64,000 bases of DNA from Solirubrobacterales bacterium (lineage in GTDB: Bacteria > Actinomycetota > Thermoleophilia > Solirubrobacterales > JACPNS01). Location: NCBI GenBank assembly GCA_016185345.1, contig JACPNS010000002.1:2149-66148 (forward strand), written 5' to 3'. The notes beneath the pieces are model-generated. The model ran no database searches, was not told where the DNA came from, and saw only the letters and a list, made by a program, of their open reading frames with translations. Both the position numbers and the translations under genes were made by a program. Within the stretch, counting starts at the first letter, position 1; every line of letters starts with the position of its first letter. Shown piece after piece: positions 6,218 to 54,507 of this stretch.

Positions 6218-7159
6218 ATGAAACTTCAACGCGCCCTCGTAGCCTCGCTACTCGCAAGCCTTGTCGCCTTCGCCGCAATCATCGGGTCAGCGTCCGCAGC
6301 AACTCAGGTCGGCCAGAAATGTCAGGTCGGCTACAGCGGTCAGCCGACGATGATTCAGGGCAGCATTACGTCAGGCCAGTCCTACACGGTCGCAAGCTCC
6401 GGGATTCTCACAAGCTGGGGCGTGGATACGACGACCTTTGGCAGCTCGTCGATGCTTGCCGCCGTCTTTGGCACCGAGTCCGGCGGAATCTGGACGGTCC
6501 AGCGCGCAACCCCCTTTCAGCTGGTGGTCGGCAACCGGGTCAACGAGTTTCCGACGCGGATGCCAGTCGTGGCAGGAGAGGTGCTCGGGATGGTCTCCTA
6601 CAACTCGAGCAACTTGATGTGTGGCGTGCTGCCAGCTGGTGACTCAATTGCCAGCTCGGGGTCATCCACGTATCCCGGGGATTCGTTCATGCCCAATGCG
6701 ACGCCGCAGTTCCGCGTCGGTGTCTGGGGAATCGTCGAGCCCGACGTTGACGGCGACGGCTTCGGAGATGACACGCAGGACAAGTGCCCGCAGTCCGCAG
6801 CGTTCCAGAACGCCTGTCCGGTCCTTGCGATCAGCCAGAGCCTTGCCGCGATCAAGGGTGCCATCTCGATCACCGGCACCGCGAGCATCGCTTCGTCGTT
6901 GACAGCAACCGCTGTGGTCAAAGTCCCCAAGCTCGGGAAGAAGAAGGCCGCCACCGTGACTTTCTCTTCACCTCCGACCGCCTTCGCCGCAGGTCAGCTC
7001 AAGAAGCTAAAACTGAAGCTTCCCTCACGCGTCAAGAACGCACTCGCGGGAACGAAGAAGTCGAAGAAGCTGAAAATCACGGTCACGTTGAGCGGCGCCG
7101 GGCTCGCCAACACGGCGACCAGCGTGAAATCGATCTCGCTCCCCGGGACGAAGAAGTAG
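6218..7159 (+). CDS. secreted protein, paralogue B of 5213-6157
   Basis: I place the start at ATG 6218 (MKLQRALVASLL signal peptide) rather than the track start 6158. DVDGDGFGDDTQDKCP. C-terminal half is colinear with paralogue A. Confidence 0.6.
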   Translation: MKLQRALVASLLASLVAFAAIIGSASAATQVGQKCQVGYSGQPTMIQGSITSGQSYTVASSGILTSWGVDTTTFGSSSMLAAVFGTESGGIWTVQRATPFQLVVGNRVNEFPTRMPVVAGEVLGMVSYNSSNLMCGVLPAGDSIASSGSSTYPGDSFMPNATPQFRVGVWGIVEPDVDGDGFGDDTQDKCPQSAAFQNACPVLAISQSLAAIKGAISITGTASIASSLTATAVVKVPKLGKKKAATVTFSSPPTAFAAGQLKKLKLKLPSRVKNALAGTKKSKKLKITVTLSGAGLANTATSVKSISLPGTKK

Positions 7160-44004: not shown

Positions 44005-44043
44005 AAGTCGAGCGTAGACGCCAAACGCTGTAGCGCGCTCGGG

Positions 44044-44098
44044 GTTATTGGTATCCCCCCGCAGGCGGGCTCTGCCGCCGAGGAGGGATGCCAATAAC
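44044..44098. repeat. hairpin element, copy C
   Basis: Outer stem GTTATTGGTATCCC / GGGATGCCAATAAC. Core CCCCGCAG-N14-CGAGGAG. Confidence 0.6.
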
Positions 44099-44139
44099 GC
44101 CGAAGAGACGCCACCCCACACGCTAGAATCGCGCGCCTT

Positions 44140-44805
44140 ATGTCATCAGACCGCCAGACCATCGAACTTTCCGCGCGCGCCTCATTCGGCAGCCGCGAAG
44201 GCCGCCGCCTCCGTAAGACCGGGAACGTCCCCGGAATCCTCTACGGCCGCGGCCGCGACCCGCAAGCCTTTTCCGTCAACGAGCACGACCTTCGCGCAAC
44301 CCTCAAGGCCGGCCACGCTCTGTTTGACGCCAAGCTTGAAGGCGACTCAGTCCCAGTGATCGTCAAGGACCAGCAGCACCACCCGGTCCGCGGAGACTTC
44401 ACGCACATCGACCTCCTCGAAGTGGACCTCAAGCAGGCCATCGAGTCGCAGGTCGCCGTTGAACTGACCGGTGTCGAAGAGGCACCCGGCGTTGTTCAGG
44501 GCGGTGTGCTCGACCAGGTCACGCGCGAACTCAACGTTGAAGCGCTGCCGACAGACATTCCGGACTCGATCATCATCGACGTCGCCCACCTTGAGCTGAA
44601 CCAGACGTTCATGCTCGCCGAAGTGACGACGATCCCGTCAGAGCTGACCGTGCTCGACGACCCCGAGGAGACCGTCATCGCGACAGTCACCCCGCCGTCC
44701 AAGGCCGAGGCACCCGAGACTGTCGAAGAAGAGACCGAACTGGTCGGCGAAGGCGAAGAAACCGCAGAGGGCGAAGGCGACGACGCCGACTCCTCGGACG
44801 AGTAA
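44140..44805 (+). CDS. rplY: 50S ribosomal protein L25 / general stress protein Ctc
   Basis: GSREGRRLRKTGNVPGILYG. Acidic C-terminal tail. Upstream of pth. Confidence 0.9.
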   Translation: MSSDRQTIELSARASFGSREGRRLRKTGNVPGILYGRGRDPQAFSVNEHDLRATLKAGHALFDAKLEGDSVPVIVKDQQHHPVRGDFTHIDLLEVDLKQAIESQVAVELTGVEEAPGVVQGGVLDQVTRELNVEALPTDIPDSIIIDVAHLELNQTFMLAEVTTIPSELTVLDDPEETVIATVTPPSKAEAPETVEEETELVGEGEETAEGEGDDADSSDE

Positions 44806-50630: not shown

Positions 50631-51962
<1,332 letters not shown>

Positions 51963-52009
51963 CCGCATAGACAGAAGGTGACGCGCCTCTCCGCGCGAAT
52001 GCCTTCCCT

Positions 52010-52342
52010 ATGCCTTCACGCCCAACCCAACGAGTACGAGTAGCCCACAAGTCAAAGGGCCGCCCAGTCTCAAAAGGCATCCGCTGGGGCCGCATGCCAG
52101 GCAACTGGCTGATCGTCATCCTCCTCGTAATGGGAGTCCTCTACATCCCACCCCTCAAGGGCTACTACGAGCAACGCAAAGCAACCACCGCCGCCAAAGC
52201 AAACCTTCAACGGCTCGGTAAAGAAAACCGCGCCCTAAAAGCAAGAGCCCGCTCGCTCAAAAAAGAATCAACGATCGAGCTAGAAGCACGCAAGCTCGGC
52301 ATGGTCGCTCCCGACGAACGACCTTTTGTCATCATTCGCTAA
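52010..52342 (+). CDS. ftsB: septum formation initiator (FtsB/DivIC family)
   Basis: One TM followed by a coiled coil, LGMVAPDERPFVI. Located directly after eno as in other actinobacteria. Start uncertain. Confidence 0.7.
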   Translation: MPSRPTQRVRVAHKSKGRPVSKGIRWGRMPGNWLIVILLVMGVLYIPPLKGYYEQRKATTAAKANLQRLGKENRALKARARSLKKESTIELEARKLGMVAPDERPFVIIR

Positions 52343-52365
52343 CAAACCCGGTGGGGCACGGACGG

Positions 52366-52417
52366 GGAAGGACCTTCTCCCCGCAGACATACCCTGTCGA
52401 GGAGAGAAGGTCCTTCC
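52366..52417. repeat. hairpin element, copy A
   Basis: Outer stem GGAAGGACCTTCTC / GAGAAGGTCCTTCC (14 bp). Core CCCCGCAG-N11-CGAGGAG. Confidence 0.6.
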
Positions 52418-52426
52418 GCGGCCAAG

Positions 52427-52999
52427 TCATGCAGCGTTAGAAGCTGCCTCTTCTGACGTCTCGTCAGCGGATTCCTCAGAGAATCGATTGATCACGATCT
52501 GGTCCGAGGTGATCGTCACGGAAATCGGACGATGACCCGCCCAGTGTTCTGCGTAGACCGGATCTTCAACGATTGCCGGATCCAGCCAAAGCCCATATCC
52601 CTCTTCACCATGGTCAAAGGTCGCTTCAAATGCCGGCCTGCGACGGCCTCGGCCGCCACGACGTCCACGACGACGACGGCGTCCGGGGGCAGCGCCCTCG
52701 TCGTCTTCGTCGGCCCTGGCCGCCTCTGCTTCGCGCTTCGCGAGAGCTGCTTCCAGCTCTGATGCGATCAACGCGTCGTCTTCGGCTCGCAAGTCAAGTT
52801 CTTCTTCGGCCCCGGGTGATGATGATGCGGGGTTTTCGGCTGCAGCGGCACCGTCAGCATCGAGCGACTGCTCGCGCTTGAACGCGGCGATGTCTTCCGC
52901 CGATGCGTCAAGCTGATGCGCGATCCAGGCGTCTGTGCGGCCCTGTCGGACCCATACGCGAATCTGGTTCAGGTGTGGTCGTAGCTGTCTAGTTGCCAT
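52427..52999 (-). CDS. hypothetical protein with acidic region and Arg-rich RGG-like tract
   Basis: Start ATG 52999 (MATRQLRPHLNQIRVW). GRRRRRGRRGGRGRRRP tract. Divergent from csrA. Confidence 0.4.
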   Translation of the reverse strand: MATRQLRPHLNQIRVWVRQGRTDAWIAHQLDASAEDIAAFKREQSLDADGAAAAENPASSSPGAEEELDLRAEDDALIASELEAALAKREAEAARADEDDEGAAPGRRRRRGRRGGRGRRRPAFEATFDHGEEGYGLWLDPAIVEDPVYAEHWAGHRPISVTITSDQIVINRFSEESADETSEEAASNAA

Positions 53000-53059
53000 G
53001 CAACGGACACTATCAGCGGCTTTCGGGCGCAAATCGTCGCATTTCTCGGCCCGCAGGTA

Positions 53060-53213
53060 TAGACAAACTGGCCAAGTATCCAGTATGGTGGATGCATTGC
53101 GGGGAGAGGACACCCCGCGCGTAGCGGTTTTTAGGTAGCATGCCGACTCAGCCCCGAGCGGATGGATCTGACGATGGACCGCTCGAACGACGCAAAGTGC
53201 TTGGAGGCGCTGC
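53060..53213 (+). promoter_or_regulatory. candidate csrA promoter and GGA-rich structured leader
   Basis: TAGACA-N18-TATGGT (53060-53089). Hairpin GCGGGG-AGAGGACA-CCCCGC (53099-53118). Hairpin GAGCGG-N17-CCGCTC (53156-53184) with two GGA in the loop. SD TTGGAGG with GGA at 53203-05. Confidence 0.4.
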
Positions 53214-53459
53214 ATGCTCGTACTCACCCGGAAATCGAATCAGAGCATCATGATCGCGGACGACGTTGAGATCTCCGTGCTCTCAATCGTGGGTGACAAG
53301 GTGCGCATCGGCATCGAGGCTCCGAAGAACATCCCGATCTTCCGCAAAGAGGTCTACCTCCAGATCCAGCGCGAACAGGCCGAAGAGTCAGCAGACTCCC
53401 CTGACGCCACTCCGGAAGCAGTCGACGCCGCTCTAGGCGAAATCGCCAACGGCGCGTAA
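53214..53459 (+). CDS. csrA: carbon storage regulator CsrA (RNA-binding translational regulator)
   Basis: [52 protein letters not shown] is colinear with E. coli and B. subtilis CsrA. Acidic C-terminal extension. Confidence 0.9.
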
Positions 53460-53474
53460 CTCCACTTTGTCGCA

Positions 53475-53497
53475 TTCAGCCCCTCCCTCGGGCTGAA
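53475..53497 (+). terminator. hairpin 16 nt after the csrA stop (possible U-tail-less terminator)
   Basis: TTCAGCCC-CTCCCTC-GGGCTGAA. Confidence 0.3.
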
Positions 53498-53639
53498 ACC
53501 CGCCCAGAGTCAGTCGGCGCCCCGCCAGCGCTGCATACCTAAGCGCCATATCTTCCAAGGTCGATCCCCGCGGGATCGAGTGTGGATGAAATAGGGCTTT
53601 GCAAGCTGATGTACGAAGCACGCCGAATCAGCGAGGACG

Positions 53640-53693
53640 TGGGGGAAGGTTCGCCCCCGCAGGCGTATCCAGCCGAGGAGGTGAACCTTCCCC
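53640..53693. repeat. hairpin element, copy B
   Basis: Outer stem GGGGGAAGGTTC / GAACCTTCCCCC. Core CCCCGCAG-N11-CGAGGAG. Confidence 0.6.
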
Positions 53694-53723
53694 CGCGGCA
53701 TCGCGTACTTCAGGCCGAAGTAC

Positions 53724-53975
53724 CTAGCTCATGATCGAGCTCAGGACCTGAAACATTCCCCAGCTCGTGAGAACAACAGTCGCGACGAGCGTGACCATGA
53801 GCGTGACGAAGCGCCGGAACTGGTGCTGTTCGTGCTGCTCGACGTAACGCTTCTGAGTGCGCTTGATCGCTTCGTGACGCACTTCATGGCGTCGCTTGCG
53901 GTCGGTGTGAGTGTGCTCGTGGAAAGCACGCTCGAACTCGGCCACTGATTGCCGCATCTTCATAACGTCTTTCAC
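53724..53975 (-). CDS. small tail-anchored membrane protein, His/Arg-rich N-terminal part
   Basis: 83 aa. C-terminal TM FVTLMVTLVATVVLTSWGMF. Followed by hairpin GTACTTC-N5-GAAGTAC (53705-53723). Confidence 0.35.
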   Translation of the reverse strand: MKDVMKMRQSVAEFERAFHEHTHTDRKRRHEVRHEAIKRTQKRYVEQHEQHQFRRFVTLMVTLVATVVLTSWGMFQVLSSIMS

Positions 53976-53976
53976 T

Positions 53977-54507
53977 CTAGCGATCGCAGGCCCGCCAAAG
54001 TCCTTTTCTTGTGCGGATTGCTACACGCTCCAGGTCGGCAAGGTACCCGGCCTTTGAAGTGTTGGGCTCAATCTCGATCGTCCGGGCGTAGCCGCCGCGG
54101 ATCAGCTGCGCGTTCACGAACGTGTCGCCGACGTACACGAATGCGAGTGATCGGCCGTACTTGTCTTCGGGCTCAGCATCAGGCACCAGCCGCACCTTGC
54201 GGCCCTGGACGAGCTGCTTGTTGAAGTCGCTGGCCTCACGCCCGAAGCATTCGACGGGGCTGTCGGGCTTGACCGACTCCGGCGTGTCGACGCCGATGTA
54301 GCGAACGCGTTCGCTGCGGCCGTTTGCGCCGCGCACGAGGATCGTGTCGCCGTCCACGACGCGAAGCACGGTGACCGTGCGCTCGGCCCCAGAGGCAGAG
54401 GAGGATTTGCTCGACGGTGCCGACGAATCTCCCTCGATGAGGAAGTTCGCCGACACCACCAGAGCGGCGAACGCGGCAACCCAGCCCGCCGCACTCAGGC
54501 GAGTCAT
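53977..54507 (-). CDS. secreted thermonuclease (staphylococcal nuclease fold)
   Basis: VVDGDTILV...RYIGVDTPE...GREASDF...DKYGRSLAFVY. Confidence 0.8.
   Translation of the reverse strand: MTRLSAAGWVAAFAALVVSANFLIEGDSSAPSSKSSSASGAERTVTVLRVVDGDTILVRGANGRSERVRYIGVDTPESVKPDSPVECFGREASDFNKQLVQGRKVRLVPDAEPEDKYGRSLAFVYVGDTFVNAQLIRGGYARTIEIEPNTSKAGYLADLERVAIRTRKGLWRACDR

Follow-up and report, generated by a model that had tools for sequence, protein, structure and literature searches.

A dispersed hairpin repeat with a conserved tip beside csrA in a Solirubrobacterales bacterium and in distant genomes

Introduction

What are the two similar hairpins that stand in the same orientation on either side of csrA in this Solirubrobacterales genome, and do they have anything to do with the gene that they enclose? 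A reading of the sequence alone described them as a structured element, selected as such and bracketing the csrA locus, and counted three copies. We analyzed the whole 64-kb stretch of DNA (the window) together with orthologous sites in relatives and matches in other genomes. The explanation that we favor, with moderate confidence, is that the three hairpins belong to a dispersed family of intergenic palindromic repeats of the REP/MITE kind, with a tip that is recognized on a folded single strand. Their position next to csrA appears to be incidental. In Proteobacteria, where such dispersed palindromic repeats have been studied in depth, a transposase for REPs is known and their sequences are lineage-specific.

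Results

Three hairpins in the window

Copies A and B are the two longest inverted repeats of the window (Table 1). The arms measure 28 nt in B (82% complementarity) and 23 nt in A (87%), with 18 nt between the arms in each. The fold z-scores are -5.6 (A) and -7.1 (B) as RNA, and about -6.4 as DNA. The centroid or MFE folds reproduce the architecture that had been read from the sequence: the outer stem is followed by a C.A mismatch, a CC/GG step, a 3x2 internal loop (GCA/GA) and a 3-bp inner stem, which covaries between the copies (GAC/GUC versus GGC/GCC) and is closed by a 7-nt loop. As had been stated, the motif CCCCGCAG-N11-CGAGGAG is identical in A and B; it matches the window exactly twice, in the same orientation, and none of 100 dinucleotide-preserving shuffles contains any match. 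The outer stems, which had been described as different, do differ, but not wholly, as GGGGAAGG...CCTTCC at the base and a trailing GCGGC are common to both copies.

The third copy (C) is real and carries the same core, but it departs from the other two: 14 nt separate the half-sites, the inner stem has 5 bp, and the outer stem is unrelated to those of A and B. The covariance-model check that had been proposed gives a clear result for the window: a scan of its full length without filters recovers exactly these three copies, all on the forward strand, and the next match scores 12.8 bits.

Table 1. Coordinates of the hairpins and their cores in the window.
Feature	Positions	Strand	Evidence or remark
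Copy A hairpin (imperfect)	52360..52423	+	inverted repeat I2, fold z, model R1
Copy A core, CCCCGCAG-N11-CGAGGAG	52379-52404	+	exact motif match
Copy A model R1 match	52365-52418	+	49.4 bits
Copy B hairpin (imperfect)	53631..53704	+	inverted repeat I1, fold z, model R1
Copy B core, CCCCGCAG-N11-CGAGGAG	53655-53680	+	exact motif match
Copy B model R1 match	53641-53694	+	58.5 bits
Extended copy-B unit, 109 nt	53613..53721	+	BLAST of relatives' loci, sequence reading, DNA fold
Copy C hairpin	44043..44099	+	model R1 match 46.4 bits, fold
Copy C core, CCCCGCAG-N14-CGAGGAG	44057-44085	+	14 nt, versus 11 in A and B

Both A and B lie between convergent gene ends, a few to about 20 nt from stop codons. 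Copy A is placed between the stop codons of a DivIC/FtsB-like gene (ends at 52342) and an Arg-rich gene (ends at 52427), and copy B between the ends of csrA (stop at 53459) and a 79-aa gene on the reverse strand. The two enclosed genes are csrA (PF02599) and the conserved Arg-rich protein, which has no Pfam match. Copy C is found about 8 kb upstream of the csrA-side hairpins, in the divergent intergenic region between an ABC1/UbiB-like gene (reverse strand) and rplY/L25 (forward strand, start at 44140). In copy B the hairpin is part of a 109-nt unit, with a 5' flank, ACGAAGCACGCCGAATCAG, and a 3' flank that contains a small hairpin, ACTTCAGGCCGAAGT.

The window copies have neither terminal inverted repeats nor a clear target duplication, the ends of the 109-nt unit sharing only GTAC, and no transposase or other cognate protein is encoded near them in the window. 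A terminator scan of positions 51900-54100 returned no site at A or B, and no U-tract follows either hairpin (the flanks are GCGGCCAAGTC and GCGGCATCGCG). We rejected an intrinsic terminator, in which a U-run would follow a GC-rich hairpin; termination without a U-tail may nevertheless take place at A and B. The GC skew of the window is too weak for orienting replication.

In agreement with the view that the element is no named RNA family, Rfam 15 yields only two tRNAs over the whole window at the gathering threshold, and positions 52200-53900 at E<=10 give only chance-level miRNA and snoRNA matches of 15-20 bits. Rfam searches with one Bacillaceae copy and one high-GC copy found nothing relevant, nor did a full-text literature search on the core sequence, Bacillaceae repeats or MITEs and the B. 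subtilis 190-bp repeat. The REP papers that we consulted describe no family of this kind.

Orthologous sites in relatives

Orthologues at 87-97% identity, fetched via their proteins and not via the motif, have no change in the 15 core bases (0/105), versus 27 changes among 214 stem positions (Fisher p = 1.7e-5). Most stem changes come in compensating pairs, and in the loops the sequence has been rewritten. For copy A, a changed loop and compensatory stem changes are seen in L001-L004, L006, L008 and L158; the pair GGAAGG/CCTTCC becomes GGTAGG/CCTACC in L008 and GGTAAG/CTTACC in L158. The copy C orthologue in L001 has 11 stem changes with pairing kept, and its core and loop are unchanged. These comparisons bear out the proposal of a selected, non-chance hairpin with an invariant asymmetric core, in that the stems change by compensation and the core stays fixed.

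The sites themselves are far less stable. The B unit is reversed in three independent assemblies (L002, L003 and L005), and in BLAST of L002 and L003, 109 nt match the reverse strand of the window at 94.5% identity between collinear flanking genes. Downstream of csrA, relatives at 90-98% identity show four different arrangements. In L158 (87% protein identity) B and C are absent and A is kept with compensating changes, which suggests that copy A may be useful where it sits. All three copies are absent in L159-L161, which are more distant Solirubrobacterales with conserved gene order. The copy C site is empty in L158 and L160, and L159 has no model match. Three 20-kb loci from more distantly related genomes contained no copy.

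The order L25-pth-mfd-surA-eno-DivIC-ArgRich-csrA-79aa-SNase is kept in the Solirubrobacterales relatives that lack the hairpins, with gaps of only 4-53 nt at the A and B sites; the pair of csrA and the Arg-rich gene is present in L159 and L160. Since these relatives keep the same order, csrA is not a bracketed cassette. With B inverted, C at an unrelated locus and the order independent of the hairpins, the latter are no constant part of the csrA locus, and the idea that the bracketing is meaningful is not supported. Copies are gained, lost and flipped between close relatives, which is the behavior of a mobile repeat and not of a csrA-specific regulator. For this window, the hairpins should not be taken as part of csrA regulation without evidence.

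Distribution across genomes

The findings that had been named as refuting the proposal did not turn up: there are further copies, and related as well as very distant genomes contain the core. In species-representative genomes, about 100 of 125 matches are hairpin copies; they come from about 20 Bacillaceae-type genera, three Solirubrobacterales MAGs and Gemmatimonadota. Metagenomes gave 53 model matches in 100 loci, with high-GC contigs among the carriers. What Solirubrobacterales, Bacillaceae and Gemmatimonadota (Actinomycetota, Bacillota and Gemmatimonadota) have in common is a tip of about 30 nt, which caps lineage-specific long hairpins in at least three phyla and is the only part shared across them; no such constraint holds for the outer stem and apical loop. 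The search pattern itself accounts for part of the constancy of the core across genomes, and copies found independently of this pattern show core variants such as CCCCACAG, CCCCGGAG and GAGGAAG. A scan of viral contigs produced 28 matches, none in a convincing hairpin context and most of them apparently coding, so the element is not phage-borne.

Across the family the outer stems covary, with 92.7% of cells paired versus 72.5% in shuffles and 34-44% for slid partners, and with 95 double-change cells versus 25 in shuffles. At position 2b, 36 of 40 sequences have G, and the pair formed with its partner is GC (35), AU (4) or GU (1). This Watson-Crick or wobble covariation contradicts the register of a kink-turn (a 3-nt bulge followed by tandem G.A/A.G), which was dismissed. 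A hammerhead-like CUGANGA was likewise set aside, as inspection revealed no three-way junction. The half-site spacing ranges from 7 to 16 nt. Because of this variability a duplex-DNA operator was dropped on inspection, as was a coding peptide, since loop lengths are not multiples of three.

The copies are predominantly intergenic, with 87 of 92 outside ORFs of at least 120 aa and 5 of 92 inside. Relative to the neighboring genes, 24 are sense, 15 antisense, 19 convergent and 9 divergent. Highly expressed genes such as eno, gap-pgk-tpi, rpsA, rplY and fabH-plsX adjoin copies. Some copies form mosaic clusters with nested insertions, tandem modules and a neighboring group II intron, and copies are often located at contig ends.

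The Bacillaceae form

In many Bacillaceae the tip caps hairpin repeats of about 135 nt. Some of these copies carry hallmarks of DNA transposition, namely terminal inverted repeats and 8-bp target duplications. Both ends, GGCTGTGTTAAA...TTTAACACAGCC, are present in 13 of 107 Bacillaceae copies as 12-bp terminal inverted repeats; the span is 164-187 nt in 11 of these 13, and 238 and 303 nt in the other two. The two-ended copies that were read have AT-rich 8-bp direct duplications, e.g., TTTATTTT (L050) and ATTTTTTA (L032). The ends presumably resemble those of ISL3-type elements.

The Bacillaceae stems form subfamilies that recur across genera, which indicates that stem and tip travel together. 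Damaged copies break exactly at the core borders, at GAGA^CCCC in L107 and at GAGGAG^G in L108, L114 and L278. The element explains contig breaks in many draft Bacillaceae assemblies, and it is available in cultivable, genetically tractable bacteria (among them Priestia megaterium, Lysinibacillus sphaericus, Neobacillus and Sutcliffiella).

Discussion

A repeat probably recognized at its tip

The constant module at the tip consists of a base pair, the C.A mismatch, CC/GG, the GCA/GA internal loop, G-C, R-Y and C-G pairs, and a variable loop. This module is selected, probably through recognition of the folded single strand by a trans-acting factor. The likeliest candidate would be a protein by which the element is spread or maintained on single-stranded DNA, comparable to RAYT in REPs. 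That a repeat of Gram-positive and other phyla retains one 15-nt bipartite tip in Actinomycetota, Bacillota and Gemmatimonadota, with the rest of the hairpin changing, implies a conserved, so far unnamed partner. Locally, a copy would act at the 3' ends of transcripts as a strong hairpin without a U-tail that terminates transcription or blocks exonucleases. Against the mobile-repeat reading stand the low density (three copies in 64 kb), window copies without transposition ends, the retention of copy A down to a relative at 87% protein identity and the failure to find a cognate protein; a tblastn search of the fetched loci with IS200, IS608 and RAYT queries, a weak test, had no match below E = 0.17.

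Alternative explanations

A core common to several phyla would be unusual for a REP family and would fit an RNA motif with a host function equally well. A cis-acting structured RNA is the foremost alternative, a possible one that we nonetheless doubt. The hairpin would be transcribed with its neighbors and the tip would bind a widely conserved RNA-binding factor (the ribosome via the SD-like GAGGAGG, an RNase, or CsrA via GGA), affecting termination, mRNA 3'-end stability or translation, with copies spreading secondarily. That the core is asymmetric, with a conserved C.A mismatch and a GCA/GA loop, suggests that it is read as a folded single strand and not as duplex DNA, as does a half-site spacing of 7-16 nt, which a dimer on duplex DNA could not tolerate. 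The core, which is conserved across phyla as those of REPs usually are not, contains AGGAGG; copies lie beside highly expressed genes, and copy A is kept with compensatory changes. Moreover, the Bacillaceae-1 RNA motif lies inside one expanded copy, and its reverse complement is a proposed CsrA binder (PMC4333381). However, the Bacillaceae copies show hardly any preferred orientation with respect to the genes beside them (24 sense versus 15 antisense), one and the same site carries B in either orientation, outside close relatives the sites are not kept, and no U-tract follows the hairpins. The GGA of CGAGGAG is predicted by both the RNA and the DNA folds to lie in the CC/GG step and the C.A mismatch, outside the apical loop, which speaks against the arrangement of a CsrA site, where the apical loop of a short hairpin presents A(N)GGA, usually at two or more sites. 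Comparing the strands gives no clear answer, since the forward strand folds more stably by 3.5 kcal/mol (an average over non-independent copies), but the G.U counts favor the other strand.

More speculative, and in our judgment unlikely, is that the tip is the recognition module of a still unnamed system that crosses phyla, either a new single-strand hairpin enzyme unrelated to RAYT or a universal cellular partner (such as the ribosomal anti-SD or CsrA) exploited by repeats. If true, this would make a new class of REP-like system, set by a conserved tip and not by a conserved foot.

It is quite improbable that only the apical hairpin is mobile (the core, or the core with about 12 bp of its own stem), entering the centers of pre-existing palindromes or terminator hairpins. 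Such an event would explain the differing outer stems and the terminator-like positions. At the B site, L158 has a plain perfect palindrome, GCGATCCCGC|GCGGGATCGC, and the window and L002 share its 3' arm (GCGCGGGATCGCG in L002) with a hairpin of about 54 nt at the center. Breakpoints at the core borders and a tip that alone is common across phyla agree with this. Yet the palindrome of L158 could just as well have arisen from a longer one by loss of its center, site C shows no clean insertion at a hairpin center, the whole 109-nt unit including its flanks is inverted in L002, and the Bacillaceae subfamilies travel with their tip across genera.

The two direct hairpins are very unlikely to be the ends of a mobile cassette of csrA and the Arg-rich gene (attC-like or IS200/IS605-like) or a regulatory pair for csrA. 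Their common orientation and the enclosure of only two genes invite this reading, and IS200/IS605 ends are likewise direct subterminal hairpins (PMC6006769), but the same pair stands in conserved order where hairpins are absent, B is inverted in some strains, copy C is elsewhere, and neither a transposase or integrase between or beside the copies nor GTTRRRY/RYYYAAC sites were found. That ordinary terminators or chance palindromes look alike by accident can practically be dismissed: A and B do lie between convergent genes, but no T-run pattern accompanies them, no shuffle reproduces the motif, the model scores of 46-58 versus 12.8 bits leave a wide gap, and hundreds of copies elsewhere carry this 15-nt bipartite core within an identical structural frame.

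Comparison with known systems

Integron attC sites are, like these elements, imperfect hairpins recognized by structure, with extrahelical or mismatched bases, a variable terminal loop and direct copies flanking genes. Here the window copies lack the RYYYAAC...GTTRRRY core sites (R'/R''), there is no integrase or cassette array, the enclosed genes are conserved chromosomal ones, and the neighbors are housekeeping genes in a conserved order; attC was rejected. IS200/IS605 elements share the direct, not inverted, imperfect hairpins recognized as single-stranded DNA. Their identity with the present locus was also rejected, as no tnpA or tnpB lies between A and B, where csrA and the Arg-rich gene are kept even without hairpins; the hairpins are much longer, and the copies are single.

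The Bacillaceae form resembles MITEs (e.g., Correia/NEMIS, RUP and bcr1) in a length that is mostly 164-187 nt for the full form, 12-bp terminal repeats (GGCTGTGTTAAA), 8-bp AT-rich duplications and long hairpin. The window copies lack such ends, most Bacillaceae copies do not have both, and the conserved internal tip module is without counterpart in described MITEs. The Bacillaceae-1 RNA motif (RF01690) is found in L016 (6961-7028), where an expanded Bacillaceae copy contains it within the 5' arm, on the same strand; the equivalent place in ordinary copies has a single RUCCU-type segment (GACUCCUGC). RF01690 does not cover the core. Of 34 mostly Bacillaceae-type loci searched with Rfam it matched only one, and it matched nothing in the window. 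The family gives context to an orphan Rfam motif. The B. subtilis genome report of Kunst et al. from 1997 is said to mention an intergenic repeat of about 190 bp, in about ten copies and suspected to fold. Its size is like that of the full Bacillaceae form, a likeness of size and description only that we take as a lead.

REP families are normally species-specific. As with REPs and REPINs, the elements described here are short imperfect palindromes in many copies, strictly intergenic and in both orientations. Many lie within operons or where these end, and some form tandem or mosaic clusters. Their bulges or mismatches are conserved, which implies that the folded single strand is recognized, and other mobile elements target them. 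The sequences of REPs are specific to their lineage and come mostly from Proteobacteria (PMC6006769, PMC3733652), whereas the core found here is common to several phyla. REPs usually flank the gene of their cognate HUH-Y1 transposase in the same genome; here no RAYT was found. Nor does a GTAG/GTGG (or CGTC) tag stand 0-2 nt 5' of the hairpin foot: the feet of the window copies, GGACGGGGAAGG (A), GACGTGGGGGAAGG (B) and CTCGGGGTTATT (C), show no consistent tag, with GTGG in copy B only. The conserved part of the present family is the tip and not the foot.

Hairpins of the csrA region

Hairpins A and B, which lie beside csrA, are the top two inverted repeats by length in all 64 kb; a third copy, C, sits about 8 kb upstream. 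Folding yields z-scores against shuffled sequences of -5.6 (A) and -7.1 (B) as RNA and about -6.4 as DNA. The fold proposed in the sequence-only reading is borne out, with an outer stem, a C.A mismatch, a CC/GG step, a 3x2 internal loop (GCA/GA), a 3-bp inner stem and a 7-nt loop. The inner stem has A-U as its middle pair in hairpin A and G-C in hairpin B. Both hairpins contain CCCCGCAG-N11-CGAGGAG, which appeared in 0 of 100 shuffles. Beyond this common core they also share GGGGAAGG...CCTTCC and the following GCGGC, and are thus closer paralogues than was assumed when their outer stems were taken to be different. Hairpin C has a core identical to that of A and B, with its halves 14 nt apart, an inner stem of 5 bp and a wholly different outer stem.

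Hairpin copies and neighboring genes in the window
Feature	Position	Strand	Remarks
Hairpin C	44043-44099	+	Between ABC1/UbiB-like gene and rplY
DivIC/FtsB-like gene	ends 52342	+	
Hairpin A	52360-52423		Occupies whole convergent gap between DivIC/FtsB-like and Arg-rich genes
Arg-rich gene	52427-52999	-	No Pfam hit; convergent with DivIC/FtsB-like gene
csrA	53214-53459	+	
Hairpin B	53631-53704		In convergent gap between csrA and 79-aa gene
79-aa gene		-	Convergent with csrA

An unfiltered scan of the window with R1, a covariance model of the repeat, returns only B, A, and C (58.5, 49.4, and 46.4 bits, respectively; next match 12.8). A search of the window against Rfam 15 finds no family for the hairpins. 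The ~135 nt between the csrA stop codon and B (53463-53597) hold two small GC hairpins, TTCAGCCCCTCCCTCGGGCTGAA and GATCCCCGCGGGATC.

Constraint and turnover in close relatives

A CsrA protein with identical residues throughout is encoded on nine metagenomic contigs, and homologues of the Arg-rich protein carry the name Solirubrobacterales or Thermoleophilaceae in their source records. At the DNA level, the related contigs match the window with 90-98% identity. Relative to the window copies, the core bases (15 per copy) are changed at 0 of 105 positions and the stems at 27 of 214 (p = 1.7e-5). Because these relatives were obtained through their proteins, without a motif search, the contrast is not a search artefact. 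Stems carry paired changes, from GGAAGG/CCTTCC to GGTAGG/CCTACC (L008) or GGTAAG/CTTACC (L158), and copy C of L001 has 11 stem substitutions with pairing kept. The loop of A, ATACCCT in the window, is a GAA triloop in L001-L004 (GGCGAAGCC) and GTTGCT in L006; L008 has GTATCCA, which is also the loop of B. The apical loop GCGAAGC, an exceptionally stable DNA mini-hairpin, is very frequent (copy A of L001-L004, L011, L018, L022, L025, L044, L111, and others), and several lineages have a recurring GCGAAG/CCGAAG motif 10-25 nt beyond the hairpin on its 3' side.

The sites themselves are variable. A 109-nt unit (53613-53721), comprising hairpin B and about 18 nt on each side, is reversed in three independent assemblies (L002, L003, L005), with collinear flanking genes. 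An extra stretch of about 135 nt, which the window and L009 have between the end of csrA and B, is missing from L001 and L004 and represents a further indel of this variable intergenic region; in L007, the DNA downstream of csrA is entirely different. The Thermoleophilaceae MAG L158 (87% protein identity) has only A. Its B site has a plain perfect palindrome, GCGATCCCGC/GCGGGATCGC, whose 3' arm and flanks are common with B, and its C site has nothing but a small unrelated hairpin. Three more distant loci, L159, L160, and L161 (80%, 76%, and 61% identity; 20 kb each), give no significant model match; the best matches, in L159 and L161, score 16-17 bits (E = 0.03-0.07), where genuine copies score 46-58 bits. 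At the sites of A and B, L159 has gaps of 53 and 13 nt, and L160 has gaps of 4 and 24 nt.

The order L25-pth-mfd-surA-eno-DivIC-ArgRich-csrA-79aa-SNase-DeoC-rhomboid is retained in L158-L160 and partly in L161. Since gene order is kept where hairpins are missing, csrA and its Arg-rich partner are old residents and the hairpins recent, movable additions, which contradicts a reading of the bracketed genes as a cassette. The csrA/~190-aa Arg-rich pair is always divergent in Solirubrobacterales and is conserved to 61% identity (window 52427-53459; L158-L161). The Arg-rich protein has thousands of homologues, yet no Pfam hit; one source labels a homologue 'McrA', probably wrongly. Placed much like FliW, the Arg-rich protein could be a partner or an antagonist of CsrA.

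The tip module across phyla

The sequence-only reading would have been refuted by a lack of further copies and of conservation in related genomes; the genome and metagenome scans place the tip in other Solirubrobacterales and in distant phyla. Scanning one genome per species with CCCCGCAGRC-N3-12-GYCGAGGAGR returned at least 120 loci. Among the matches listed, about 100 of 125 are hairpins, the remainder being coding-like chance matches in GC-rich genomes. The majority of those listed belong to Bacillaceae-type genera: Neobacillus, Peribacillus, Cytobacillus, Sutcliffiella, Rossellomorea, Niallia, and Metabacillus, with Priestia megaterium, Lysinibacillus sphaericus, Sporosarcina, Sporolactobacillus, and others as further carriers. 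The same list includes three Solirubrobacterales MAGs (L011, L044, L111) and several Gemmatimonadota (L022, L077 twice, L101, L124). From metagenomes, 100 loci yielded 53 matches to the model, including new high-GC types. One 73% GC contig (L269, minus strand, ~10184) carries three tip modules in tandem, repeating every ~44 nt (GGAGACCCCGCAGGCGAAGCCGAGGAGGCTCGACGCCGGCGGAC), a BIME-like cluster. L272 has a near-perfect hairpin of ~150 nt. The viral contigs scanned gave chance matches only.

The part common across phyla is the tip alone, usually GAGA-CCCCGCAG...CGAGGAGG-CTC with an additional A.G mismatch, and the long stems differ by lineage. In a 40-sequence alignment, the outer stem pairs at 92.7%, where shuffles reach 72.5% and slid partners 34-44%, and double-change cells number 95 versus 25 in shuffles. 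Core invariance in these cross-genome sets is imposed by the search pattern; copies that the model found and the pattern missed comprise 12 core variants (CCCCACAG four times, also CCCCGCAAG, CCCCGGAG, and GAGGAAG) versus 5 further exact cores.

The Bacillaceae form

In Bacillaceae, the tip caps an imperfect ~135-nt hairpin, TTGATTGGAGCGGAAGG...GGAGCGGAAATCAA, with GGA/GGA internal loops near its base. Most checked copies (87/92) lie outside called ORFs of at least 120 aa, and copies are frequent at contig ends. Settings include the inside of operons (gap-pgk-tpi), upstream of eno, beside rpsA, and after 5S rRNA. Orientation relative to neighbors is near random (24 sense, 15 antisense, 19 in convergent and 9 in divergent gaps). 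Both outer ends, GGCTGTGTTAAA...TTTAACACAGCC, are present in 13 of 107 copies, spanning 164-187 nt in 11 of them and 238 and 303 nt in the other two. GGCTGTGTTAAA forms 12-bp terminal inverted repeats (L056 ~6890-7075, L050, L032, L083, and others), and the both-ended copies that were read have 8-bp AT-rich direct (target) duplications. Both ends with 8-bp duplications constitute a MITE signature, and the Bacillaceae form is a MITE. In size it recalls a '190-bp repeat' reported in the paper on the B. subtilis genome.

Copies are mosaic. The repeat can itself harbor a second hairpin element, ~125 nt long (GAAAAGCGGAAGCG...CTCGAGGGGCTAGGCGCTGCAGCTAGAC; L108 1535-1660, L278, L114, L039). Two independent host copies (one in L114, the other in L108 and L278) carry this insert precisely behind CGAGGAG, and their own 3' arm continues beyond it; in L039 the insertion point is different. 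In Sutcliffiella halmapala (L034), a group II intron (953-2844; Rfam D1-D4 and domain V-VI matches) ends 24 nt upstream of the core (2868-2890), within the would-be 5' arm of the ~135-nt form, and the hairpin appears to be an intron target. In L016, an expanded copy (core 7055-7085) contains the Rfam motif Bacillaceae-1 (RF01690, 43 bits, 6961-7028, plus strand) within its 5' arm, which suggests that this orphan motif is a module the family can take up or do without. RF01690 was matched in only 1 of 34 loci scanned against Rfam.

Interpretation

The hairpin structure is selected, the tip is under more constraint than the rest of the hairpin, close relatives show turnover of copies, and the family is spread over several phyla, with transposon hallmarks in one. 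The tip would be recognized on a folded single strand, as suggested by its conserved asymmetry and by the spacing of its halves, which varies between 7 and 16 nt and so excludes a dimer bound to duplex DNA. The putative recognizer would most likely be the factor spreading the element.

It is less likely that a host factor (the ribosome via AGGAGG, an RNase or CsrA) instead binds the tip in transcripts: conservation across phyla and the long retention of A would suit such binding, but orientation is random and sites turn over. Insertion of just the tip into existing palindromes is still harder to credit, as it agrees with the B site of L158 but is at odds with the whole-unit inversion in L002. 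Chance is contradicted by the shuffles (0/100) and by scores of 46.4-58.5 bits against 12.8 for the next match.

Comparison with known systems

No description of the hairpin repeat was found in the searchable literature. It differs from REP in missing the defining GTAG/GTGG tag, and the loci searched yielded no RAYT. Copies in the window differ from MITEs in having neither terminal repeats nor duplications. In behavior, the repeat is nonetheless most like REP/REPIN elements and MITEs, with a tip conserved across phyla and cultivable carriers that make it testable.
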